A DNA stretch of 64,000 nt from Squalus acanthias (taxonomy: Eukaryota): the NCBI GenBank assembly GCA_030390025.1, contig CM059439.1, positions 45,570,001 through 45,634,000 of the forward strand, written 5' to 3'. A program made the position numbers and the translations under genes. Under the pieces are notes generated by a model that worked only from the letters and a program-made list of their open reading frames with translations, was not told the origin of the DNA and did no database searches. Each line of letters begins with the position of its first letter. Position 1 is the stretch's first letter. This document shows, in pieces, positions 2,671 through 55,994 of the stretch.

Positions 2671-3994
2671 CTTTACATCAATGCTGATAAGGTACAGGGT
2701 ATTTGGTTTGAAACAGAGCTATACAATGGTGTGATTAAAAAACCCAAAAATAATAAAATTAACAAACTGATAAATGATTTCATGATCTCATTAAAGAGGC
2801 TGACAATCTTTGAAGGTTTTTAATTAAAAATTTCTATTAATATTGAAATATCAAAATAGGTAATTTAAAACCCCAGGAAGAGGCTTGCAGGCTTCACGGA
2901 TATAACAACATCTTCTGATTGATACAGTTATTTCAAAAAATGCAGGTACAGTCATGCCAGAGCAGAATTTGCTGAACACAGAAGTATCAAAAAGATGCAA
3001 TGGTTTGGATACTGCTTGTTGATAGTTAGAGTGAGAGCACAGCTCAGCCTCCAGTGACATCCTACATGCAGCCACACTCCCGAATAAAGATTTAATTAAC
3101 ACTAAACTGCCAAAGCTTAAGAATTCTTACTTCAGTGTTAATACATCAGGACAATCTTCCAGCATATCTCCAGGAACTTGGAAAATACACAAGGATATCC
3201 TGCTCAGAACCTTTTAGTAACAAACAACTCCGTAACCACTGTGCATCTCTGACTGTGCAGGCAAATGAAAAATCTGCAGGAAATTAAACGGCAATAATGG
3301 AGAGGTGCTTGCCAATTGCAAGGTTTGATCCAAAAAGGTCTCTATTGTGTAACATAATTTCAGACTAGTAGACCCATAAATAAATACTTCTAATCTTCAG
3401 AAGAGGAACTTTGCATATTCTACTTACTACTGTAAACTACAATCACTCATAAAGGAAACTCAATAGGGCTGATTTTCCTCTCCCTAATAGTGCCCGCCCA
3501 GAAGTGGGTAGACTGCAGAGGAAAAATGGGCCTTAGTCCTTTGCTCCCATTCTCCCCTGAATTGCAATGAACACAAATTTCCTCTGTAGCTTTTCTAGTG
3601 CCTGCGCTTACAGAAGGTGCAGCAATATGTTCAATTTCATACCAACACCAGAGGCCCCCCCCTGCACACAGATTTCCTCGAATAGCACTAGGTGCAGTTT
3701 AGGGCCAAGCTGCTCCCCTCAAAAAAACCTAGCACTACTGATTTCACAGCTACTGTTTAGGTGCTATCTGTTTCAAGGGGCAGGCTGGTATTGTCAGGTT
3801 AAATCTTTATTTTTAGCTTTTTAAATATAAAAAAATGGTTTTGCTGCTCAGAACATTGTTAGTCTTCTATATAACTCTATATAACTCGCAGTTGCTCTTT
3901 TCTGAGCCACTAATAACTGTTTCCATACCACAGAGGCTGTTTTCAGTACTGCACCAAGCCCATTTTTACTGGCTCACATGGAGGCAGATGAGGG

Positions 3995-4926
3995 GACCTT
4001 CCCTCCATCATAAGGTCAGAAATGGGGATGTTCGCTGATGACTGCACAGTGTTCAGTTCCATTCGCAACTCCTCAGATAATGAAGCAGTCCGTGCTCGCA
4101 TGCAGCAAGACCTGGACGACATTCAGGCTTGGGCTGATAAATGGCAAGTAGCATTCGCGCCACAGAAGTGCCAGGCAATGACTATCTCCAACAAGCGAGA
4201 GTCTAACCACCACCCCTTGACATTCAACGGCATTACCATCGCCGAATCCCCCACCACCAATATCCTGGGGGTCACTATTGACCAGAAACTTAACTGGACC
4301 AGCCACATAAATACTGTGGCAACAAGAGCAGGTCAGAGGCTAGGTATTCTGCGGCAAGTGTCTCACCTCCTGACTCCCCAAAGCCTTTCCACCATCTACA
4401 AGGCACAAGTCAGGAGTGTGACGGAATATTCTCCACTTGCCTGGATGAGTGCAGCTCCAACAACACTCAAGAAGCTCCACACCATCCAGGACACAGCAGC
4501 CCGCTTGATTGGCATCCCATCCACCACCGTAAACATTCACTCCCTCCACCACTAGCATACTGTGTGTACGATCTACAAGATGCACTGCAACAACTTGCCA
4601 AGTCTTCTTTGGCAGCACCTCCCAAACCCGCAATCTCTACCACCTGGAAGGACAAGGTCAGCAGGCGCATGGGAAAACCATCACCTGCAAGTTCCCCTAC
4701 AGGTTACACAACATCCTGATTTGGATGTATATTGACGATCCTTCATAGTCGCTGGGTCAAAATCCTGGAACTCCCTTCCTAACAGCACTGTGGGAGTACC
4801 TTCACCACAAGGACTGCAGCGGTTCAAGAAGCGGCTCAGCACCACCTTCTCAAGGGCAATTAGGGATGGGCAATAAATGCCGGCCTTGCCAGTGACGCCC
4901 ACATCCCAGAAACAAATTTTAAAAAA
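3995..4926 (+). mobile_element. 5'-truncated CR1/L2-group LINE (RT C-terminus + 3'UTR), same family as 27390-30330
   Basis: ORF 4022-4555 contains the FADD RT motif, DLDDIQAWADKWQV and LGVTIDQKLNW. Sequence is nearly identical to 29392-30330 and ends in an A-rich tail. Confidence 0.95.
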
Positions 4927-4994
4927 GCAACCACAAGCCCCCTCGCAGTTGCTTTTTTCTGAGCCACTAATAACTGTTTCCATACCACAGAGTA

Positions 4995-26850: not shown

Positions 26851-27204
26851 TCTACTACCGTCCATATACATGCATTTTTTCCAAAAATTTAACATGCAGT
26901 TAAAATTCAGTGTGCATTCCAAGCTACCGCAGTCTGACCTCACTTCCTATCAGCATGTCATACAGAGTTACCTTATCTGACTATTCATCTCTAGCCATAT
27001 GCTCCAGGCTGCACCCTCTAACTCAAGATTAGAGACAGAAATATTGTTTTGTTTCCCACTCTGACCCCACTTCGCAAATCTCCACACATGACAATGGCAA
27101 TAGCCTTCTCATGACATGTATTGATACCAACTCAGGATTTCTTACCAAATGATCTGCTAATTGTGCAGCAAGTGAGGCTGATCAGTCTCTCCACTGTTAC
27201 TTGA

Positions 27205-30200
27205 AGGGCGACTTTAGCCCTACCCACCCAGGAGACTTATCCGCTGACATCCTGCTCCGTTCCCATTGTCTTCTATTTTAACCTCATCTCTGAGCAGGTG
27301 GCAAAGAAGCCAGTGCGTTCCTTCAATAGATATGCAGGTCGGAGGTCTGATGACATCATCGGGCCCCGATAGCTATTTTAATCAGTGGCCTGGGTGAGGA
27401 ACGGCAGCATAGTGGTTATGTTACTGGACTAGTAATCCAGAGGCCTGGACTAATAATCCGGAGACGTCAGTTCAAATCCCACCACGGCAGCTGGGGAAGT
27501 TAAATTTAGTTAATTAAATGAATCTGGAATTAAAAAGCTAGTATCAGTAATGGTGACCATGAAACTATCAGATTCTGGTTCGCTAATGTCCTTTAGGGAA
27601 GGAAATCTGCCGTCCTTACCTGGTCTGGCCTATATGTGACTCCAGAGTCACAGCAAAGTGGTTGACTCTTAACTGCCCTCTGAAATGGCCTAGCAAGCCA
27701 TTCAGTTGTACACAACCACTACGAAAAACAATATAAGAATAAAACCGGACGGACCACCCGGCATCGACCTCGGCACCGGCTTCGGATAAGACAACAGCAC
27801 ACCCAGCCCAGTCGACCCTGCAAAGTCCTCCTCACTAACATCTGGGGATGTGTGCCAAAATTGGAAGAGTTGTCCCACAGACTAGCCTGACATAGTCATA
27901 CTCACAGAATCATACCTTTCAGCCAATGTCCCAAATTCCTCCATCACTATCCCTGGGTATGTCCTGTCCCACCGGCAGGACAGACCCACCAGAGGTAGCA
28001 GCACAGTGGTATACAGTCGGGAGGGAGTGGCCCGGGGAGTCCTCAACGTTGATTCCGGACCCCATGAAGTCTCATGGCTTCAGGTCTGCACAGTCCTAGT
28101 GGAGACGAAATCACGTCTTCAGACTGAGGACACCCTCCATTGTGTTGTGTGGCACTACCACCGTGCTAAATGGGGTAGATTCAGAACAGATCTAGCAGCT
28201 CAAAACTGGGCATCCATGAGGCGCTGTGGGCCATCAGCAACAGCAGAATTGTATTCCACCACAATCTGTAACCTCATGGCCCGGCATATCCCTCACTCTA
28301 CTATTACCATCAAGCCAGGGGACCAACCCTGGTTCAATGAGGATTGCAGAAGTGCATGCCAGGAGCAGCACCAGACGTACCTACAAATGAGGTGCCAACC
28401 TGGGGACTCTGCAACACAGGACTACATACATGCTAATCAGCGGAAGCACCATGCTATAGACGCTAAGCGATCCCACAATCAACAGATCAGATCAAAGCTC
28501 TACAGTCCTGCCACATCCAGTCATGAATGGTGGTGGACAATTAAACAACTAACGGAGGCTCCATGAATATCCCCATCCTCAATGATGATGGAGCCCAGCA
28601 CGTGAGTGCAAAAGACAAGGCTGAAGCATTTGCAACCATCTTCAGCCAGAAGTGCCATGTGGATGATCCATATCGGCCTCCTCCTGAGGTCCCCACCATC
28701 ACAGAAGCCAGTCTTCAGCCAATTCGATTCACTCCACGTGATATCAAGAAACGGCTGAGCGCACTGGATACAGCAAAGGCTATGGGCCCTGACAACATCC
28801 CGGCTGTCGTGCTGAAGACTTGTGCTCCAGAACTAGCCGCGCCTCTAGCCAAGCTGTTCCAGTACAGCTACAACACTGGCATCTATCCGACAATGTGGAA
28901 AACTGCCCAGGTATGTCCTGTCCACAAAAAGCAGGACAAATCCAATCCGGCCAATTACCGCCCCATCAGCCTACTCTCAATCATCAGCAAAGTGATGGAA
29001 GGTGTCATCGACGGTACTATCAAGCGGCACTTACTCACCAATAACCTGCTCACCGATGCCCAGTTTGGGTTCCGCCAGGACCACTCGGCTCCCGACCTCA
29101 TTACAGCCTTGGTCCAAACATGGACAAAGGAGCTGAATTCCAGAAGTGCGGTGAGAGTAACTGCCCTTGACATCAAGGCAGCATTTGACCAAGTGTGGCA
29201 TCAAGGAGCCCGAGTAAAATTGAAGTCAATGGGAATCAGGGGGGAAAACTCTACACTGGCTGGAGTCATACCTAGCACAAAGGAAGATGGTTGTATTTGT
29301 TGGAGATCAATCATCTCAGCCTCAGGACATCGCTGCAGGAGTTCCCCAGGGCAGTGTCCTAGGCCCAACCATCTTCAGCTGCTTCATCAATGACCTTCCC
29401 TCCATCATAAGGTCAGAAGTGGGGATGTTCGCTGACGATTGCAGTATTCAGTTCCGTTTGCAACTCCTTAGATAATGAAGCAGTCCATGCCCGCATGCAA
29501 CAAGACCTGGAAGACATTCAGGCTTGGGCTGGTAAGTGGCAAGTAACATTCTCGTCACAAAAGTGCCAGGCAATGACTATCTCCAACAAGCGAGAGTCTA
29601 ACCACCGCCCCTTGACATTCAATGGCATTACCACCGCCGAATCCCCCACCATCAACAGCCTGGGGGTCATCATTGACCAGAAACTTAACTGAACCAGCCA
29701 CATAAATACTGTGGCTACAAGAGCAGGTCAGAGGCTGGGTATTCTGTGGCGAGTGTCTCACCTCCTGACTCCCCAAAGCCTTTCCACCATCTACAAGGGA
29801 CAAGTATGGAGTGTTATGGAATACTCTCCACTTGCCTGTATGAGTGCAGCTCCAACAACACTCAAGAAGCTCAACACCATCCTGGACAAAGCAGCCCGCT
29901 TGATTGGCACCCCATCCATCACCTTAAACATTCACTCCCTCCACCACCGGCGTACCGTGGCTGCAGTGTGGACCATCTACAAGATGCACTGCAGCAACTC
30001 GCCAAGGCTTCTTCGACAGCACCTCCCAAACCCGCAACCTCAACCACCTAGAAGGACAGGGGCAGCAGGCGCATGGGAGAACCATCACCTTCAGGTTCCC
30101 CTCCAAGTTAAACCCCATCCTGACTTGGAAATATATTGCCGTTCCTTCATCGTCGCTGGGTCAAAATCCTGTAACTCAACCCCTAACAGCACTGTGGGAG

Positions 30201-30383
30201 TACCTTCACCACACGGACTGCAGCGGTTCAAGGTGGCGGCTCACCACCACCTTCTCAAGGGCAATTAGGGATGGGCAATAAATGCTGGCCTGGTCAGTGA
30301 TGCCCACATCCCAGCAACGATTAAAAAAAAGGCAGGAAACTGACAGAGAGCATGCAGTTGAGATGTGGGAGTTAAAATCACCT
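27205..30383. mobile_element. GC-rich MITE (27205-27389 + 30331-30383) split by the LINE insertion
   Basis: Left GGGCGACTTTAGCCC matches the reverse complement of the right end GAGTTAAAATCACC. Confidence 0.45.
27390..30330 (+). mobile_element. ORF1-less CR1/L2-group LINE with a tRNA-derived 5' head; decayed copy (frameshifts, deletion in APE)
   Basis: A box 27405-27415, B box 27470-27478. APE starts VLLTNIWG..PDIVILTESYL from about 27825. RT motifs: KAMGPDNI, NYRPISLLSIISKVME, QFGFR, LDIKAAFD, GVPQGSVLGP, FADD. Poly-A end at 30330. Confidence 0.95.
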
Positions 30384-30891
30384 GGGCGTAATGCTGCCGA
30401 GGCCAGGGGGTTTGGCACTCGGCCTCCACCCCCGATTCCAGCTCCAGGTTAAAATAGGGGCTTTGGAGTTCCAATGGCACCCCAGCTGAAATTAAACAAA
30501 ATTCACCCGAACACCCACCAGAAGACTAAGTCAGTCATTAAGATTCTGATCTGGCATCAACCAGATGGTTAATAAGAGCTCTATCTTCCTTACCATTTGG
30601 ATTGTTCTAATTTTGGGGATTCTCATCAATGGCCTTGACACGTCAGGTCTGAGTCACAATCTATACAATTCCACACAGGTAAATGGTCTCTCAAAGTCTC
30701 CCATGATTATTTACTGTATTTTATTCCCAAGAGACTTTTTACCCCGTTTGAAAGTTATTTTCTTTAATCTGTATGTTGTCCTGTGCCACATTACACCTTC
30801 ACGACTAACAGCATGTAACATGTGACCTGTCCGGGTGTTGCTGTCCATCCAGGTGCCTGCAGGTGTGGAACAGCGGCACATGCTGACTCAC

Positions 30892-32964: not shown

Positions 32965-33336
32965 TGCTTTGAAGGTAATCACTATTGTTACATAGACACA
33001 CGTGGCAGCCAATTTGTGCAAGCAAGATCCCACAAATAGCAGTTAAGCTGTTTTTTGGTGCCATTTGTTAAGGGTTGAATGTTGGCCAGGACATGGGGAG
33101 AACTGCCCTGCTCTTCTTCAAATAGTGCCATGGGAACTTTTATGCTCATCTGAGTAGGTATACAAGGCATGTTTTAAAATCTCATCCAAGAAATAGTACT
33201 TCTGCCAATGCATTATTTCCTCAGTACTACACAGAAGTGTGGCCTAGATTATGTGCTCATATCCTAGAGTGGTGCTTGAACCCATGTCTTTCTGACTCAA
33301 GAGATAAAAGTGCTACCACCGAGCCAAGCTGGCACT
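32965..33336 (-). mobile_element. Deu-domain tRNA SINE, diverged
   Basis: Reverse complement matches 521-900, with head AGTGCCAGCTTGGCTCGGTGGTAGCAC..GAGTCAGAAAG..GGGTTCAAGCACCACTC. Confidence 0.85.
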
Positions 33337-33539
33337 TATAACCTAAAAGTACATTTCCCCCATTTATTTCTTTATATCTTGATGTGGAAGTATTAGTTAT
33401 TAAAGTTAATAATGTTTTCAATGAATTTTTATCAACAGGAAACCAAGCCTCAGAATGCAGACCACAATCCTATCCTCTTCCTAATCTTATCCTGCCCCTA
33501 TCTACTTTTGGACTTAACAAAATGTGTTAAATGGTATGC

Positions 33540-37676: not shown

Positions 37677-37862
37677 GGGGTAGATCTTGACTTTGTGCAA
37701 TTGTTTCAAATGGGTGATAGCGAATTGGCAGCCCATGTTCCATCTCTCCTGATTTTTATTTCCACTGACTTCAATGGAAATAAAAATTGGGAGAGATGGA
37801 AAATGGGCTGCCGACTTGTTATCACCCATTTTATACTATCGCACAAAGTCAAGATCTATCCG
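37677..37862. mobile_element. Near-perfect ~185-bp hairpin MITE
   Basis: GGGGTAGATCTTGACTTTGTGC pairs with GCACAAAGTCAAGATCTATCC, and pairing continues to the central TTTTTATTTCCA/TGGAAATAAAAA. Confidence 0.9.
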
Positions 37863-44200: not shown

Positions 44201-46155
44201 GGGGAGGGGGGGGGGCGGGGGGCAGGGAAGAGGTACAGAAAATGTAAGTTGTAGGTAAAAAGGAGGAACTTTTTTTGGAATGAGTCCAAAACATCTATCT
44301 GTCACTCAGATTTCCAAAACACTCTAGATTAAGACTAGAAACCTACTGCACCGGTGGTAAAAGCATCACTCCAGAAGAACCTAAGTGCAGAGCAGTTGGT
44401 AACTAGACAGGTTTATTTGTGAATTAGAAAGCATTAATCTAATTGAGGACATTGAGATGACATCATAAAGTCTACAAGTGGTTCCTGTTTGTCATCTGAA
44501 CCCCAATATTAGATTGTTTTTAAATTTACCTGGAGCTACCTATTACTATGTATAATAGACACATGGCAGTGAATTTTCTTTGCAAATGTTTAAGCTTTAC
44601 TAAGATGCCTGCACATTGCCTATCAAAAATGTTGTGTGATACAGGACCTGAAGGTAAATTGATTTTATGATATGCAGACAAAAGGATGGTGATGAATGAC
44701 CTGAGGTACTACCACATTATTTTTACTCACATTAATTTATTTTTAATACAGTGAATCACATCTTTTAAATAGTATTTTTATAATGCCACAGGCAAACAGT
44801 CCGAGCTTCCCTCTCTTCTCTGTACTAGGAGATTGCAATGGTACAATAGCACAGCCCACGCTCTCCCACCTGGAAACATAGTGGCAAATATGCTGCAAAT
44901 TATCACAACAGTGGCTACTATTCAGTGGTACTTTTCGCCCAGATTCAGAATACTTTAAAAGATAATTAATTACAGGTCCAAATAGGTAAAAGCACAGTGG
45001 CAAAGTTTGACTGTTGACAGTTTCACACTTGAACCTATGTAGACAAATGAAAGAGGAAATGTCCTTTTAAAACGGGGCTGTGCAACTATACAGGACCTAG
45101 AACTTTGGCATTATATACTCTGCATAAAAAAAAAACAGGTGCTCATTAGAATCAGCTCCACTTCTTGCTCTCTCTGTCTTTCTCTCTCTCACACACACAT
45201 ACACTCACTTAAAAAAAAAACCAGGTGTAAATTATGATTGTAACCCTCATTAGGAAACTATTACCATAGTGTTTTGCACATCATTTTTTTTGGAAGAAAT
45301 ATTAACTAATAAATATCCAGCTTTCTGGTTTTAAAAAAAAAAGAAAATCAACAGGATTGTTGTCATCTGTAATATTCTCCTTAATTTGGCCCGATGAGTA
45401 TTGAAACTCCCTCAGGGGAACAAATTTCTTACGTTCGATCGACAAACCTCATTCTCTTTTTTTATTTAGCAGCCATAAGGCAGTTTATTTTACCACTTTT
45501 TCTACCATCTGTACCAACTTTCCCCACAGACCGCTGCAGCTGTCCAGTGTAATGTGTTCAGTTCCTTTTATTTTCTGTCCAAATAGCTCGTAAACAATTC
45601 AGCAATATTTATAACTGTTGTGTCCCTTTTGTTCTGGCTAGCGGAAGGAGGCCTGGTCCTCTTCTTTTTTGATGAAATATCACCTATCTCACGGTATATT
45701 GCCACAATATGTGATAAAGGATGATAGAAATTTGTTTTTAAAATATCTTGAAAAAAACTATGCAAATATATCATTAATAATTAAAACTCAAAAGCAAAAT
45801 GGAAATGCACAAGAATGAAACTCCACAACAGAAGGCCACCATATGTCCTTTTTGTTTCAAAACATAAAGGCATGAGATATGATGGCATGTCAACAGTGTC
45901 ACCCATCATTGCTAGTTGAAAGTTTTATTTTAAATCCAGCCAATATTTCATATTTGAAATTATATGCAGCATCTATACATCAGCTGCTCTTCTAGTGTCT
46001 GTAAAAATATTTCACAGACAATCAGGCACTATATAAACTGTGACTGTCCGAGCAGATATAGGAACATAGGAGCAGGAGTAGGCCAGTTAGCCTCTCGAGC
46101 CTCTTCCGCCATTCAATGAGATCATGGCTGATCTGCGACCCAACTCCATTTACTC

Positions 46156-46404
46156 TTCGCTCTCTTCACTCAGTGGGTTGTGAATCTTTGGAATTCTCTA
46201 TCCGAAAGTTCTGTGGATGCTCAGTCGTTGAGTATATTCAAGGCCAAGATAGATAGACTTTTGGCCTCTAGGGGAATCAAGGGATATGCGGATCAGGCGG
46301 GAAAAAGTGGAGTTGAGGTAGAAGATCAGCCATGATCTTATTGAATGGCAGAGCAGGCTCGAGGGCCATATGGCCTACTCCTGCTCCTAATTCTTATGTT
46401 CTTA
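46156..46404 (+). mobile_element. CR1 3'-end fragment inserted in opposite orientation in the 3'UTR of the long CR1
   Basis: GTTGTGAATCTTTGGAATTCTCTA..GATCAGCCATGATCTTATTGAATGG..CCTACTCCTGCTCCTAATTCTTATGTTCTTA. The host sequence resumes at CCCGCCTTTGCCCCATATCC. Confidence 0.85.
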
Positions 46405-48442
46405 CCCGCCTTTGCCCCATATCCCTTAATACCTTTGGTTAACAAAAATCTATCAATCTCCGATTTAAAATTAACAATTGATCGAGCATCAATTGCTGTT
46501 TGCGGAAGAAAGTTCCAAACTTCTACCACCCTTTGTGTATAGAAGTGTTTCCTAATTTCACTCCTGAAAGGTCTGGCTCTAATTTTTAGACTATGCCCCC
46601 TCGTCCTAGATTCCCCAACCAGCAGAAATAGTTTCTCTCTATCTACCCTATTTGTTCCCCTTAATAGCTTGAAAACTTCGATCAGATCACCCCCATGACC
46701 TTCAAAATTCCAGGGAATACAACCCTAGTTTGTACAATCTCTCCTCGTAATTTAACTCCTGGACTCTGGGTTTCATTCTGGTAAACCTACGCTGCACTCC
46801 CTGCAAGGCCAATATATTCTTCCTGAGGTGTGGTGCCCATAACTGGTCACAGTATTCCAGGTATGGTCTAACGATGGCTTTGTACAGCTGTACTGTAGCT
46901 TCTACCCCCTTGTATTCTAGTCCTCTAGATATAAAGGCCAGCATTCCATTAGCATTTTTGATTATTTTCTATATCTGTTTTAATGATCTATGCACATGGA
47001 CCCCAAAGTCTCTTTGGACATCCACTGTTTTTAGCTTTTCACCATTTAGAAAGTACCCTGTTTTATTCTTTTTAGGTCCAAAATGGATGACCTCACATCT
47101 GCCTACATTGAAATCCATTTGCCACAGTTTTGACATTCACTTAATCTATCAATGTCTCTTTGTAATTTTATGCTTTCATCTACACTGCCTACAATGCCGC
47201 CTATCTTTGTGTCATCTTTCTATGCCATCATCTAAGTCATTCATAAATATGGTGAATAGTTGAGGCCCCAACACATCCTGCCAGTTAGAGTACCTGCCCA
47301 TTATCCCTACTCTCTGTCTCCTGCCGCTCAGCCAATTTCCTAACCAGGCCAATAATTTGCCTTCAATTCCATGGGTTTCAACCTTAGTTAACAGTCTCTT
47401 AGGAGGGACTTTATCAAATACCTTCTGAAAGTCCATATAAATAACATCTATGGGCATTCCCCTGTCCACTACTTTAGTCACCTCTTCAAAAAATTAAATC
47501 AGATTCATCAGGTGTGACCTACCTTTCACAAATCCATGCTGGCTCTCTCTGATCAACTGAAAATTTTCAAGGTGTTCAGTCACCCTATCCTTAATTATAG
47601 ACTCTAGTAATTTCCCGACAACAGATGTTAGGCTAACTGGTCTATAATTCCCTGGTTTCCCTCTCTCACCATCCTTAAAAAGCAGAGTGACATGCGCAAT
47701 TTTCCAATCTAACGGAATGGTTCCTGAATCCAGAGAACTTTGGAAGATTATAGTTAGGGCATCTGCAATGTGCTCACCTACTTCCTTTAAAACCATCTGG
47801 TCCTGGGGATTTGTCACTCTTTAGTGCCATTATTTTCTTCATTACTGTTATTTTACATACGTTAATTTTGTCGAGTCCCTGTCCCAGATTCGATACTAGT
47901 TTCCTTGGGATTTCTGGCATACTATCCTCTTCCTCTACTGTAAATACCGACACCAAGTAATTATTCAACATTTCCTTATTATCATTGACAAAATCACCGC
48001 TAGCAGTTTAAGGAGCCAACATTGCTCCTGACTACCCTCTTTTTCCTAATGTAATTGTAAAAATTTGTGTTGGTTTTAATATCCCTTGCATGTTTCTTTA
48101 CAAACTCCCTTTTTGTAGTTCTTACTACTGTATCTGTTTTGTGACCCTTTGCTATTCTTTGTATCTTTCCCATTCGCCAGGATCTGCGCTATTTTTTGCA
48201 GTTTTGTATGCTTTTTCTTTTAGTTTTATGTCGTCTCTTACCTCTTTCGTCGTCCATGGCTTTTTTTTTTGGCAAGTAGAGCTCTTGCCCCTTAGGGGTA
48301 TAAACTGCTTCTGTATCACAAATTCTTTTTTGAACCGCTCCCACTGATCTTGTCATTTTACCCATTAACAGATTTGCCCAATTTACTGTGGACAGTCTGT
48401 CTCATCGCATTGAAGTCAGCCTGACCTAAATCTAGAATCTTA

Positions 48443-49789: not shown

Positions 49790-52247
49790 TTAGTAGCTGT
49801 TTCACGTTTCTCCCTTTCAAACACTACGTTGAACTCGATCATGTTATGATCGCTATTAGATAAAAGTTTATGCACCATTAGGCTGTTAACTAAATCTGGC
49901 TCATTACTAAATTTTATATATGTCATGTCCCCTTGTTGGTTCTAGGACATATTGTTGCGGAAAACTATCCCGGACACACTCAAGAAATTCACTACCTTTC
50001 TGACATGTACTAGTCTGCTTATCCCAATCTATATGAAAGTTAAAATCCCCCATTAAAACTACTCTGCCTTTGCTACATGCTTGTCTAATCTCTGCACTTA
50101 TACAATCTAGCACTTCAGAGCTGCTACCACTACAGTCTTAAATCCTTTCCTATTTCTTAATTCTACCCATAAAGTCTCCATTGCCTGCTTACCCTTCGTT
50201 ATATCCTCTCTTATCATGGAAGTGAATTCATCCTTAATCACTAAGGCTACTCCTCCCCCTCTGCCATTTTCCCTATCTTTCCTGTGGACCTTATAACCTT
50301 AGTTCCCAGTCCTGACCATCTTGCAGCCATGTCTCAGTAATGGCTACCATGTCATACCCTCCAAGTTGAATTTGCGCCTGCAGTTCATTCAATTTATTCC
50401 GTGCATTTGTATAAAGAATGCTTATTTGGGCCACACACCCTAACCTGTTCTTCAGCTCTAATGTTTTACTCACATGTTTCTTATTTCTCTCTCCTGGTTT
50501 AATCACTTTACACCTTTTAGTTTTCCCCTTACCTGTACTGCCTAAAGCACAATTTCTGTTACTCTACTCTCTTCCATTTCATTTGTTTTTGAACTATTAT
50601 TTATACTACATTTTCCACCTAAGCCCTCCCCCCACCTCCCCCCCACCCCCCCCCCCCCCATTTACTAGTTTAAAGTCCTTGTGACCGTCCTATTTATCCT
50701 TTCCGCTAGGACTCTATTCCCAGCCTGGTTCAGGTGGAACCCATCCCAATGGTACAGTTCCTTCCTGTCCCAATACTGGTGCCAATGCCCGATGAAATGG
50801 AACCACTCTTTCCCACACCACTCCTTCAGCCACGTGTTCACCTCCCTAATCTGCTTATCCCTATGGCAATTTGCACGTGGCTCAGGTAATAATCCAGAGA
50901 TTATAACCCTTGAGGTCCTGTTCTTTAATTTAGCTCCTAGTTCCTGGTACTCCCCAAACAGGACCCCTTGCCTACTCTTCCCTATGTTGTTGGTCCCAAC
51001 ATGGACCACAACGACGGGATCCTCCCCCCTCCCTCTCCAAAATCCTTTTAAGCCGGTTCGAGATGTCCCTCAGCCTGGCTCCAGGTAGGCAACATACCAT
51101 GTTGGACTCTCGATCTTGCTTACAAAGGATGCTATCTGTCCCCCTAATTACTTAATCCTCTACAACTATCACATTACGCTACCCCTCATCCTCCTCCTCC
51201 TCCACCCGCCTTTGGACAGCCTCCTGCTCCAAGGTGCCATGGTCTGCATTCTGGCTGTCCTTCCAATAGTCTTTATCCTTATCCTCACAGGTAGCAAGTA
51301 CATTTTACTTGTTGAAATAGGTCAGTTTCTGCAGATCCTCATTCTCTATCTCACCTGGGTTCCCCTTGCTCTGCACACTATTGGTCACACCAACCCCGTT
51401 CTGAACCTGTACCTCTCTACAAGATGTGACCGAGATCTGGAGCAAACTGTCCAGATACTGCTCCCCCTCCCTTATGTGACGGACTGTCTCCAATTCGCAC
51501 TCCAGCTCAATGACTCTGAGCGGGAGAGATTCGAGACAGAGACATCTACTGCAGATGTGGTTGCTCAGGACATCTCGCTGTCCACAAACTCTCAAATACT
51601 GCAGTCTAGACATACAACCTGCTCTGCCATATCTTAGTCTAGATTATTTATATCAACTTAAATATTTTTTTCTTATTTTACACACTAACTTGCACTAAGT
51701 ACTAAAACACTGGAAAAAAAATTTAAATGCCTCTATTTATTTGACGACTATCTAAACTTACTAGAAACTTAAGACTTGTCGCTGATCTGATCTGGAAAAA
51801 AAACACTCACCAGCTACTCACCAATCAGCTCCTTCCATTGTGCTGACATCACTTTAGGTGTTTTTACCTCTCTTCGTGATGCTCGTGCTCCCTCACCTCC
51901 AGGCTCTCCGATTCTTGAACTTAAACTCCTCCCTCTGTGTTGATTTAGATATGCCGTCACTTTGTGAATTTTTCCCCTCCTCTGTTTTGGTCTCTGCTTT
52001 GCTGCACTGCCTCTGCTGCCTGGTTCCCGCACTGCTTTTAAATGCTGCACTCTCCCGATGTGCTTTGCTGCACGTCCCTGATATATAAGGAAGAGGGTGT
52101 GTCTTCTCAGAAATGGAAGCCTTTATATACACTGCAAGGTTACTTTGCATCCACAGCTTATGGACAACAGTACAAAAACTTCCATAGCCAGGTGCTACGT
52201 AAGGTAGGACTGTCACATTTACTATACCATGCAGCTCATTTACCTAG

Positions 52248-52436
52248 AATCAGCTGTGGTAGCACTCTCAAGTCTAAGTCAAAAGATCATGGGTTCAAGC
52301 CCCACTCCAGAGACTTGAGCAGGCTGAGGGAGCGCTGCACTGTCGGAAGTGCCATCTTTTGGATGGGATGTTAAACCGAGGCCCCGCCTGTTCTCTCAGG
52401 TAGATGAAAAAGATCCCATGGCTCTATTCGAAGATG
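52248..52436 (+). mobile_element. Deu-domain tRNA SINE, 3'-truncated
   Basis: GTGGTAGCACTCTC..GGGTTCAAGCCCCACTCCAGAGACTTGAGC..TTAAACCGAGG..CTCTCAGGT..AAAGATCCCATGG matches 530-750. Confidence 0.85.
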
Positions 52437-53130
52437 ACTATTAAAAAAAGATAAACTTTCACTGAAGCCCTTATATACATTGCAAGCAACCTTTCAGCAA
52501 TAGTGCAACATTCTCTAAGGTCAGATGCAGAAAGAACTCCAGTAATGTCATCACACTTGCAGTCATTAGCTGTTTAATAACTTTTAAGAAATGGTTACAT
52601 TTCCATGTCAAAGTTCAAAAATAGGCAATGTGATAATAAAAAATCTATTTAACAATATTTACCGTCTAATTCAAAGAAAATTGCTTTCGTTAACTTATAT
52701 TGTATGAACGAAAAGCTGTGGAGATTTTGAAGGCCTGAAGAGGTCGAGCCATATTCAAAATGCAATAACAGGGGTTTGGGAGCATAATGAGATCAGACTT
52801 TAATTCTGCAAACTCCAAATCCTGTCAGGCTATTAAATTATCGATTAATGAACACAACTAAAAAACAACACACAAAACTTCTGAAAAAACAGAACTGGCC
52901 GACATAAAACTTTTTTGTAATTAAATTCCTCTTCCCCACCCCTCTCCCCGCTCCCACCACCCATGCTTACATTCCTCTTGTGCAAAAGTGGCAGGTCAAG
53001 TCTTCAGACATCTCTACATAATCTCCATCAACATTCTCTTTAGTCAAATGTGGAACTTAACCCTTACCTGCTAAAGCAGCATTGGTGTGGCATGCATTCA
53101 ATGTAAAGAAAATGGAATGGGGGTACTTAC

Positions 53131-53267: not shown

Positions 53268-54113
53268 CTGCAGAAGAAACACAGTACAGCTTAAGTTTTT
53301 GTTTTAACATCATTCAGGATATGTCAGTAAAAATGAGTGTTTCACTAGTACTGTACTGTACTGCAAAACATACAAGTCCTCTTTGTTTCGCATTATATGC
53401 AGCATTATGCTGAATACACACTAGACACAGGTGGAGTGAGTATTTCTTTATAAGTAAAGACATCCCCTATGTAAATATATTTAATTATACCATGAACCCA
53501 GATAGAAAGATCACTGCATATGACTGAAAAAGACAGAAACTGTTAGTCACACCCAAGAGAGTGCTAAAGCTTCCCATCCATATATAAACTGTGAATGAAA
53601 AGTTGGCATGGTATGGTGGGGTGGGGGGGGCGTACATTTTACTTCAAAAACTAGAAAATATACATGTGAATATCAACAAAGTATACAATATATACTCAGA
53701 GTAGTTATCATCAGTGCAACTCAAGTGTAAAATTAAAAGATAATAATTTTAAAAGTTACAGGTGCCTGTTATGCGCAAATATTCGGTTCACTACTAAACA
53801 ATATGTGCCATATTAAAATAATATTGTATCAATGCAAGTTTTACACATAATTTATTAAGTTAGTAACTTTGTTCTATTTACAATATACTGACAGCTAAGT
53901 TTTGGGAGGACCAGGCAATGGAAGGATCCTCCACAGGCTGGTGCTCTGAAATAGGCCATTTCAGCTACACGAGAAATGGTAAAAGGTCCCAGAATAGGAA
54001 AATCTTTAGATGATCCGACAGAGCACTGAGTGGCAATGTCCTGCAGAAAAGTGAAGGAGAGTTTCCGATTTTGCCAGTGAAAAGCTGATGTGCTCTGCCA
54101 AATGTGCCCAGCC

Positions 54114-54527
54114 CTGGGTACGGTAGCATAGTGGTTATGTTACTGGACTAGTAATCCAGAAGCCTGGACTTGTGATCCTGAGTTCAAATCACAGCTGGAG
54201 AATTTAAATTCAGTTAATTAAATAAATCTGGAATAAAAAGCTAGTATCAGTAACGGTGACCATGAAACTACCGGATTGTCGTAAAAGCTCATCTGGTTCA
54301 CTAATGTCCTTTAGGGAAGGAAATCTGTCGTCCTTACCCGGTCTGGCCTATATGTGACTCCAGACCCACAACAATGTGGTTGACTCTTAACTGCCCTCTG
54401 AAATGACCCAGCAAGTCACTCAGTTGTAAAAGGCAGCTCACCACCACCTTCTCAAGGGCAATTAGGGATGGGTAATAAATGCTGGCCTTGCCAGCAACGC
54501 CCAAATCCCATGAATGAATTAAAAAAA
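54114..54527 (+). mobile_element. tRNA-derived SINE, an internally deleted derivative of the 27390-30330 LINE
   Basis: A box TAGCATAGTGG at 54124-54134, B box GTTCAAATC at 54182-54190. 54114-54428 matches 27390-27710 and 54430-54527 matches 30230-30330. Confidence 0.93.
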
Positions 54528-55994
54528 GGTTGCATAATACTATACAATGTGACCACATCAGTATGCACACCAACATGGAGATTGCTAATGGGTTGATTCA
54601 GCAGATGCATACCTTCCTTTAGCAGACTTCGCTAATGGTGGTGATGTGGAAGGGCCGACATATGTTTGTGCGGCTGACATTTGCCCTAGAATATTGATGC
54701 AGACCCTCTGGTTTGTATGCTGCGGCCCAGAGAAGGCCCTGTGGTGGATCCAGCAACAAGTGGCGTCTTCCCACCACTCAATAAGCAGAGTGTGGACTGT
54801 GTTCCCTTGGGTGGCACAGCTTCTGTGGTAGCAGCTGGTTCCTCCTGACCAAAGGACTTAAATGTCCCACTGTTATCTGCTTACTGTCCTCTTCAAATGG
54901 TTATAGCCTTAGGGTTTACTGCAGAAAAGCCGGAAGAAGATGATTCCTCTGTAGAGGCATGAAGAACAAAGTTCCACTAATGGCTATGCAGTAAAAATGC
55001 ACCTGAAATGCAGGACTGCTGCAGAGGCCAGTGAGGCACAGAACAAATTATACAATTAAAATGCAGCTGAGGAATATGGCATAGGACTTTACTTACATGA
55101 ATAAAATGTGTTTACAACAACAACTTGCATTTATATAGCACCTTGAACGTAGTAAAACGTCCCAAGGTGCTTCACAGGAACGTTAAAGTTCGACACCTAG
55201 CCACATAAGGAGATATTAGGGCAGATGAGAGATAGGTATTAAGGAGCGTCCTAAAGGAGAATAGAGAGGTAGAGAGTCTGAGAGGTTTAGGGAAGGAATT
55301 CCAGAGCTTAGGGACTTGGCAGCTGAATGCATGCCCACCAATGGTGGAGCAATTAAAATCGGGGATGCACAAGAGTCTAGAATTGGAGAAGCGCAGATGT
55401 CTCTGAGGGTTGTAGGGCTGGAGAAGGTTACAAAGATAGGGAGGGACGAGGCCATGGGGGGATTTGAAAACAAGGATGAGAATTTTAAAATTGAGGCGTA
55501 GCTTAACCGGGAGCCAGTGTAGGTCTGTGAGCACAGGGATGATGGGTGAATGGGACTTGGTGCAAGTTAGGACACGGTCAGCCGAGTTTTAGATGAGCTT
55601 AAGTTTATGGAAGGTGGAAGATGGAAGGCCGGCCAGGATTGCGTTGGAATAGTCAAGTCTAGAGGTAACAAAGGCATGGATGAGGGTTTCAGCAGCAGAT
55701 GAGCTGAGGCAGGGGCGGAGTCGGGCGATGTTAGAGGTGGAAGTAGGCGGTCTTAGTGATGATGCGGATATGTCGTCGGTAGCTCATCTCAGGATCAAAT
55801 ACGATACGAAGGTGGCAAACAGTCTGGTTCAGCCTCAGACCATTGCCAGGGAGAGGGATGGAGTCGGTGGCTAGGGAATGGAGTTTGTGGCAGGGACCAA
55901 AGACAATGGCTTTGGTCTTCCCAATATTTAGTTGGAGAATATTTCTGCTCATCCAGTACTGGATGCCAGACAAGCAGTCTGACAATTTAGAGAC

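Follow-up and report, generated by a model that had tools for sequence, protein, structure and literature searches.

In the standard model, a short interspersed nuclear element (SINE) is an RNA polymerase III (Pol III) head added to the tail of a long interspersed nuclear element (LINE), the LINE itself being transcribed by RNA polymerase II. Which way did sequence pass between a SINE and a LINE that share both of their ends? The question is raised by a 64,000-nucleotide stretch of Squalus acanthias DNA (assembly GCA_030390025.1, contig CM059439.1, positions 45,570,001 to 45,634,000 of the forward strand). The whole stretch is called the window, and coordinates are counted from its first nucleotide. 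It contains a short element of 412 nt at 54116-54527 (+), its start set by eye at a GGG, and a LINE at 27397-30330 that is assigned below to the Zenon family of elasmobranchs. The short element is probably (at roughly 0.7) an internally deleted descendant of a tRNA-headed elasmobranch Zenon LINE.

A short element and a LINE with common ends

The two elements align by blastn in two blocks only. The 5' block pairs 54117-54428 with 27398-27710 (271/328, 82.6% with gaps, E 2e-97; 271/297, 91.2%, with gap columns excluded), and the 3' block pairs 54432-54529 with 30235-30332 (85/98, E 5e-29; 75/86, 87.2%, with gap columns excluded). The short element corresponds to the 5'-most 313 nt of the LINE followed by the ~96 nt at its 3' end, and skips 2524 nt of the LINE copy; it switches at ..CAGTTGTA (54428 = 27710), followed by AAA and the tail. 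A sequence-only reading of the window had already matched the elements at both ends, with both partners inside this one stretch, and both statements are borne out. Its switch point is kept, and its other coordinates shift slightly: the starts lie at 54116 (not 54114) and 27397 (not 27390), the 5' part measures 313 rather than ~320 nt, and the tail begins at 30235 and not at 30230. All feature positions are collected in Table 1.

Table 1. Positions of the elements and their parts in the window
Feature	Position	Strand	Basis or remark
Short element (SINE, putative internally deleted Zenon derivative): tRNA-like head, ~230-nt body, LINE 3' end, A7 tail	54116..54527	+	
tRNA-like region of the SINE: A box TAGCATAGTGG at 54124, B box GTTCAAATC at 54182	54121..54197	+	Rfam tRNA, below gathering score
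Junction: LINE 27710, AAA, LINE 30235	54425..54432	+	blastn; same joint in X1 and X17 contigs
SINE tail: ~11 last ORF2 codons, stop, 3' UTR hairpin, poly-A	54432..54527	+	
Decayed, near-full-length, tRNA-headed Zenon-type LINE without ORF1, with poly-A	27397..30330	+	5' ~390 nt fits SquAca_Zenon-1 by eye
Head common to LINE and SINE: A box 27405 (T>C), B box 27470; 15-nt deletion private to the LINE copy	27397..27710	+	
LINE-only 5' UTR, from head to endonuclease motif I; no space for ORF1	27711..27821	+	Unbroken in 7 elasmobranch consensuses, visible part
ORF2 (endonuclease and RT), decayed, to stop at 30268	27822..30268	+	PF00078, tblastn
5'-truncated copy of the same LINE; sense strand without TTTT	3995..4926	+	
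Longest TTTT-free stretch on either window strand, 3235 nt; coincides with the headed LINE	27376..30610	+	

The short element is non-coding, multi-copy (see below) and provided with a LINE-shared 3' tail, as SINEs are. No TTTT occurs inside it, the first one downstream being at 55483. The tail hairpin is predicted alike in SINE and LINE, with z of only -1.4 and -0.6, and the folding energies of head and tail are no better than those of shuffled sequences. No target site duplication (TSD) was found at the ends of either element, the best direct repeats being 5-6 nt long and off-register; insertions of the CR1 group usually have short or absent TSDs, hence the missing TSD is not disqualifying. 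In both headed elements CCT stands shortly ahead of the 5' G-run and the poly-A is followed directly by GG (27390-27396, 30331-30332, 54113-54115, 54528-54529), possibly a target preference (n = 2).

With search patterns taken from general knowledge, the A and B boxes lie 58 nt apart in the SINE (54124/54182) and 65 nt apart in the LINE (27405/27470); only one other pair at such spacing exists in the window, in a different SINE at 533. The best Rfam match of the SINE head is tRNA (21.1 bits, E 0.063; gathering score 29), and the LINE head reaches 15.3 bits (E 1.9) against the same model. In the SINE head the D and anticodon arms pair, and the variable region holds a long insert; the head may resemble vertebrate tRNA-Gln. 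ARAGORN reports no tRNA gene in the window and, being blind to the head there, is uninformative in its 0/60 on control loci. Among 80 related metagenome loci, which are distant (32-48% identity in the reverse transcriptase, RT) and possibly incomplete at their 5' ends, blastn and nhmmer gave no match to the head beyond one chance-level match of 27 nt, and the A/B pair occurs in 0/38 of those having upstream sequence. Head motifs had 0 matches in the metagenome, viral and prokaryote collections, and no shark copies turned up when the viral and prokaryote collections were searched with the RT.

In the LINE, the insert that follows the anticodon arm (27432-27463) resembles a second copy of that arm; galeomorph consensuses differ there yet still read, by eye, as a hairpin. 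The head body (27486-27568 / 54190-54271) has a weak Rfam match to a conserved region of human CLRN1-AS1 (17.6 bits, E 0.024; 10.9 bits), far under gathering, which could be chance or an ancient repeat body surviving in mammals. The SINE with the A/B pair at 533 belongs to a second family (520-870, +; 33040-33337, -; 52257-52440, +; 68-71% alike), presumably akin to SacSINE1/Deu-SINE.

Zenon has been defined by an absent first open reading frame (ORF1) and a poly-A tail, and is reported in elasmobranchs, coelacanth and hagfish (Stuart et al. 2026, PMC13343379, accessible part). The long element has no ORF1, a single endonuclease-RT ORF and a poly-A tail (A8 at 30323-30330; A-tails also at 4926 and 54527). 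Its untranslated region (UTR) after the head measures 111 nt, endonuclease motif I beginning 112 nt past the head. ORF2 is broken by frameshifts, one stop and an in-frame endonuclease loss of roughly 120 codons compared with full-length relatives; Pfam detects the RT domain (PF00078, E 8.7e-16) and misses the partly deleted endonuclease. By tblastn the element is colinear with single-ORF relatives of 930-970 amino acids.

Ten Zenon consensuses in the accessible supplement of PMC13343379 were compared by eye over the first 400 nt of each. The long element matches the elasmobranch ones over its first ~390 nt, SquAca_Zenon-1 being closest. All seven of these (SquAca_Zenon-1, -2 and -3, CarCar_Zenon-1, ScyCan_Zenon-1, RhiTyp_Zenon-1 and HypSab_Zenon-1), from five species of Squalus, Carcharodon, Scyliorhinus, Rhincodon and Hypanus, open with the head and, beyond GTTGTA, pass into the UTR that the LINE shows at 27711; the head is present in 0/3 hagfish and coelacanth consensuses. 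Two head motifs occur in exactly those seven entries of the searchable supplement text, and its legible entries give families of 59 to 2,313 tested copies. The closest named proteins are shark and ray gene models (Heptranchias, Mobula, Pristiophorus, Scyliorhinus, Heterodontus, Cetorhinus). The LINE joins shark proteins at 100/100 in a 46-row RT tree, none of whose rows is labelled Zenon, and the shark clade belongs to a 97/94 set that also holds lepidopteran (Chilo) and unnamed proteins. By sequence, the LINE matches the elasmobranch Zenon family of the CR1 group, in which the tRNA-headed form is, judged by these consensuses, family-wide. Identities as V-SINE and Daphne were given up after the comparison with the Zenon consensuses, and UCON3 showed no likeness by eye. 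Pieces of ORF2 are contained in shark gene models P0003, P0018, P0028, P0030, P0039, P0127, P0171 and P0218, exonised or mis-annotated.

Among the window copies, head, tail and body show similar levels of identity (87-91%), the truncated copy and the LINE being 89% alike, or 90-91% with gaps excluded. Since the window holds three tail copies (4831, 30235, 54432) and two heads, the long element carries only one tail and does not combine that of a SINE with that of a LINE. The sequence-only reading had allowed for a LINE fragment inserted into a pre-existing SINE, with a TSD as its mark and no other full-length headed LINE copies. The single tail, the lack of a TSD and the presence of head plus ORF2 in 7/7 elasmobranch Zenon consensuses, continuous from head to UTR in five species over the visible part, make such a local chimera, or one with the fragment beside a SINE copy, barely credible, unless these consensuses are all artefacts of consensus extension; no evidence in its favour was found. 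A 51-bp direct repeat (98%; 3885-3935 and 4942-4992) surrounds the truncated copy at offsets of ~59 nt and ~15 nt from its ends and is not a normal TSD.

Breakpoints and the direction of descent

Four public runs were aligned to window positions 27200-30500: X1 (DNA), X17 (presumed RNA, from a different organism), X23 and X24. On the LINE were placed 363,735 contigs of X1, 11,757 contigs of X17 and 154 reads of X23, and nothing of X24 was placed on this interval. Summed contig depth in X1, which is not copy number, amounts to ~100 in the flanks, 0.9-1.5 million in the head and 0.53-0.79 million directly after it; head and LINE body are both highly repeated. Over 27422-28087 the head is ~5-10x deeper in X17 than the sequence just after it, against ~2x in X1, the comparison being between different organisms and of contigs only.

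Among the 15 of 2,724 joints listed, four lead from head to tail, each in up to 16 contigs: 27710-30235 (5 contigs in X1, 2 in X17), 27710-30258 (16 and 5), 27645-30258 (11 and 1) and 27690-30242 (0 and 1). The letters at these joints vary. One X17 joint and two X23 loose ends (30206, 30258) retain several LINE-only UTR bases beyond GTTGTA ahead of the tail. At the level of peptides, P0241 and P0244 suggest a head joined directly to a later part of the tail, P0244 combining the other head type with a different joint, and the whale-shark gene model P0243 reads from the head into the start of the endonuclease. A phmmer search across the junction returned 5 proteins; a word-index protein search spanning it returned no match. 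Joints, loose ends and peptides together indicate that the short forms exist in multiple copies, with breakpoints at more than one place. The 54116 element might instead have arisen by a genomic deletion that befell one LINE copy only, outside any mobile family. This would agree with its missing TSD and with its being the sole short copy in the window, and is nevertheless very improbable, as the 27710-to-30235 joint recurs, with varying letters, in 5 X1 and 2 X17 contigs of two organisms.

The sequence-only reading offered internal deletion and capture of the head by the LINE as alternatives; both survive, as successive steps. Because its non-elasmobranch relatives are without the head, the LINE lineage must, as the sequences compare, have gained it once. 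An ORF1-less Zenon in the shark and ray ancestor would have acquired a tRNA-derived head and ~230-nt body as its 5' end, a SINE being the likely donor. The headed LINE would then have spread, as seen at family level, and have lost almost all of ORF2 to give the 54116 element, probably when the reverse transcriptase jumped between templates close to the place where head end and tail start share a weak GTT match. As A and B boxes for Pol III and a 3' end recognised by the ORF2 protein (ORF2p) were retained, the product would have been a SINE from birth, copied in trans, in line with SINE/LINE biology. Deletions may have occurred more than once, or one old deletion may have been trimmed repeatedly. 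Internal deletion is favoured by the several distinct breakpoints and by the head sub-type shared with the local LINE: the SINE head has, by eye, the Squalus-type segments and not the galeomorph types of Carcharodon, Scyliorhinus and Rhincodon.

In the reverse order, a tRNA-headed SINE with a Zenon tail would have pre-existed, a template switch of ORF2p would have given the LINE its head once, and the short elements would descend from that SINE. The LINE did gain its head at some point, for it is missing in 3/3 non-elasmobranch vertebrate Zenons and in the 80 related loci, and the accessible literature records bivalve tRNA SINEs mobilised via Zenon tails (PMC11481361) and frequent module exchange between SINEs and LINEs (PMC5786205); yet some of the several breakpoints keep LINE sequence from after the head, and the SINE head tracks the local LINE sub-type. 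We regard this order as unlikely and keep it in consideration because trimming and head exchange can mimic the signs of deletion.

Descent by internal deletion has several points against it. The spread of the breakpoints, ~20 nt on the 5' and ~30 nt on the 3' side, could stem from trimming of one ancient SINE, and the matching head sub-types from repeated head exchange. The tRNA similarity of both heads lies under the Rfam gathering score. Junction mapping, as the sequence-only reading had proposed, did yield several breakpoints among the joints listed; microhomology at the 54116 junction is 1-3 nt. No contig bridging 27710/27711 is among those listed, so that at read level the continuity of head and UTR rests on depth and the published consensuses. 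The contig evidence covers 15/2,724 joints, depth that is not copy number, only 154 reads of X23 and none of X24, and X1 possibly has the same source as the window.

Possible Pol III transcription of the headed LINE

Pol III terminates at runs of four or more T (PMC4333407, accessible part). The sense strand of the LINE (2,926 nt) has 0 such runs (T4+) and 9 of three or more (T3+). Base shuffling predicts 4.4 T4+ (P 0.0125 in one run and 0.0096 in another), dinucleotide shuffling 2.3-2.4 (P 0.07-0.09), and the shuffling of synonymous codons within the coding frames 2.45 (P 0.058). For T3+ the expected numbers are 21.1 by base shuffle (P<0.0005) and 14.2 by dinucleotide shuffle (P 0.039), and the coding frames hold 7 T3+ against 13.4 expected by codon shuffle (P 0.008). 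Runs of A, C and G in the LINE show no depletion. After the TTTT-free stretch that coincides with the LINE, the next ones on the plus strand belong to the SINE at 54116 (1,414 nt) and the other A/B-box SINE (1,141 nt), the fifth being the truncated LINE copy; the longest on the minus strand measures 1,083 nt. Window fragments that we take to be CR1-like and L2-like contain 6 and 5 T4 runs in 1,251 and 601 nt. As controls served the 50 of the 80 related loci with an unbroken ORF of at least 1,500 nt (30 were dropped). None of the 50 is free of T4, the longest T4-free stretch being 2,098 nt, and their T3 ratios (0.54-1.42 by base, 0.70-1.23 by codon and 0.66-1.26 by dinucleotide shuffle) are all above those of the LINE (0.43, 0.52 and 0.64), the last of which falls only just below the control range.

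In the window copy, the ORF2 frame is devoid of AUG from the upstream stop as far as endonuclease motif I. An AUG conserved ~80 nt upstream in the consensuses is, by eye, out of frame in HypSab, the sole entry showing both in the accessible part, and invertebrate relatives often have a Met start just ahead of motif I. The missing near in-frame AUG would suit an uncapped RNA, and is not proof of one.

Against transcription by Pol III it counts that most controls are T-richer, the eight with T <24% having only 2-8 runs, and that under the two stricter nulls the T4 depletion falls short of significance. In the LINE, T3VT2/T2VT3, a non-canonical terminator pattern, is not depleted (1 seen, 0.94 expected). 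The basis is one decayed copy and a fragment of the same family, and the T-poor sense strand could have other causes. The terminator-free LINE fits, and does not show, a Pol III-transcribed protein-coding LINE, with modest statistical support. That the head also acts as promoter for the full-length LINE stands at about even odds. A wider scenario is somewhat less likely than not: elasmobranch Zenon would be transcribed end to end by Pol III from a captured tRNA-type promoter, with oligo-T purged over ~3 kb and ORF2 made from uncapped RNA without a near in-frame AUG, and any internal deletion would directly produce a functional SINE, as would have happened repeatedly among sharks and rays.

Elsewhere in the window, 46050-47300 and 50665-51069 (-) hold what are presumably CR1-like 3' pieces of ORF2 and an esterase-like piece of ORF1, with a local 86-bp repeat at 46067/46305. 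A near-perfect inverted repeat of 124 nt at 37708-37831 resembles a miniature inverted-repeat transposable element (MITE) and has sub-threshold microRNA matches.

Relation to known elements

Compared with the standard model, the flow would be reversed, a head-owning LINE shedding SINEs via deletion. Should the full-length element be expressed from its head, it would represent a natural coding retrotransposon transcribed by Pol III. In the annotation of shark repeats, the 5' ends of SINE and LINE will be mistaken for each other in this abundant family. No description of a tRNA head on shark Zenon, of the 54116 SINE or of a Pol III-transcribed autonomous LINE was found in a full-text literature search, whose scope excluded most subscription papers, Repbase, Dfam and SINEBase; the SINE may already be named elsewhere.

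The sequence-only reading noted that SINEs typically share only the 3' tail of their LINE; it missed that bipartite derivatives with 5' and 3' parts are already known, in the accessible parts of the sources, for RTE, Vingi, Ingi and R2 (Kojima 2018, PMC5786205) and for Zenon (Wang et al. 2019, PMC6740152). The latter case, Persaeus, derives from lepidopteran Zenon via internal deletion, with at least four origins. As a short internally deleted element (SIDE), it likewise consists of the Zenon 5' end plus ORF end, 3' UTR and poly-A, with variable breakpoints and repeated origin; as described there, it has neither tRNA homology nor a Pol III promoter, whereas here the SINE and the LINE alike have a tRNA-like 5' end that contains A and B boxes. 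The short element is SIDE-like in origin, but is not Persaeus. It is probably also distinct from HE1.

Together with HE1 (V-SINE, partner HER1) and SacSINE1 (Deu-SINE, L2 tail), it is a tRNA-derived shark SINE with a LINE-derived tail (PMC3747384, PMC5499810, accessible parts); the tail of SacSINE1 is L2-type and that of the short element Zenon, which sets them apart by description. The bipartite SINEs of RTE and Vingi (Bov-tA, AfroSINE, CoeSINE4, SINE2_Gav) share 5' and 3' parts with their partner LINEs, as here. In the accessible part of PMC5786205, however, such ORF-less derivatives receive their tRNA head as a later addition onto an already deleted LINE, the LINE remaining headless, whereas the shark Zenon LINE is itself headed. 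With the elasmobranch Zenon LINEs of PMC13343379, the long element has in common the head, the 5' UTR, the lack of ORF1, the poly-A and a length of ~3.3 kb; the main text of that paper has 0 matches for 'tRNA' and 1 for 'SINE', and its accessible parts describe neither the head nor the short derivative. Origin by internal deletion is of a known kind; new are the Pol III-type head on the autonomous partner, conserved in sharks and rays, and the oligo-T-free body.
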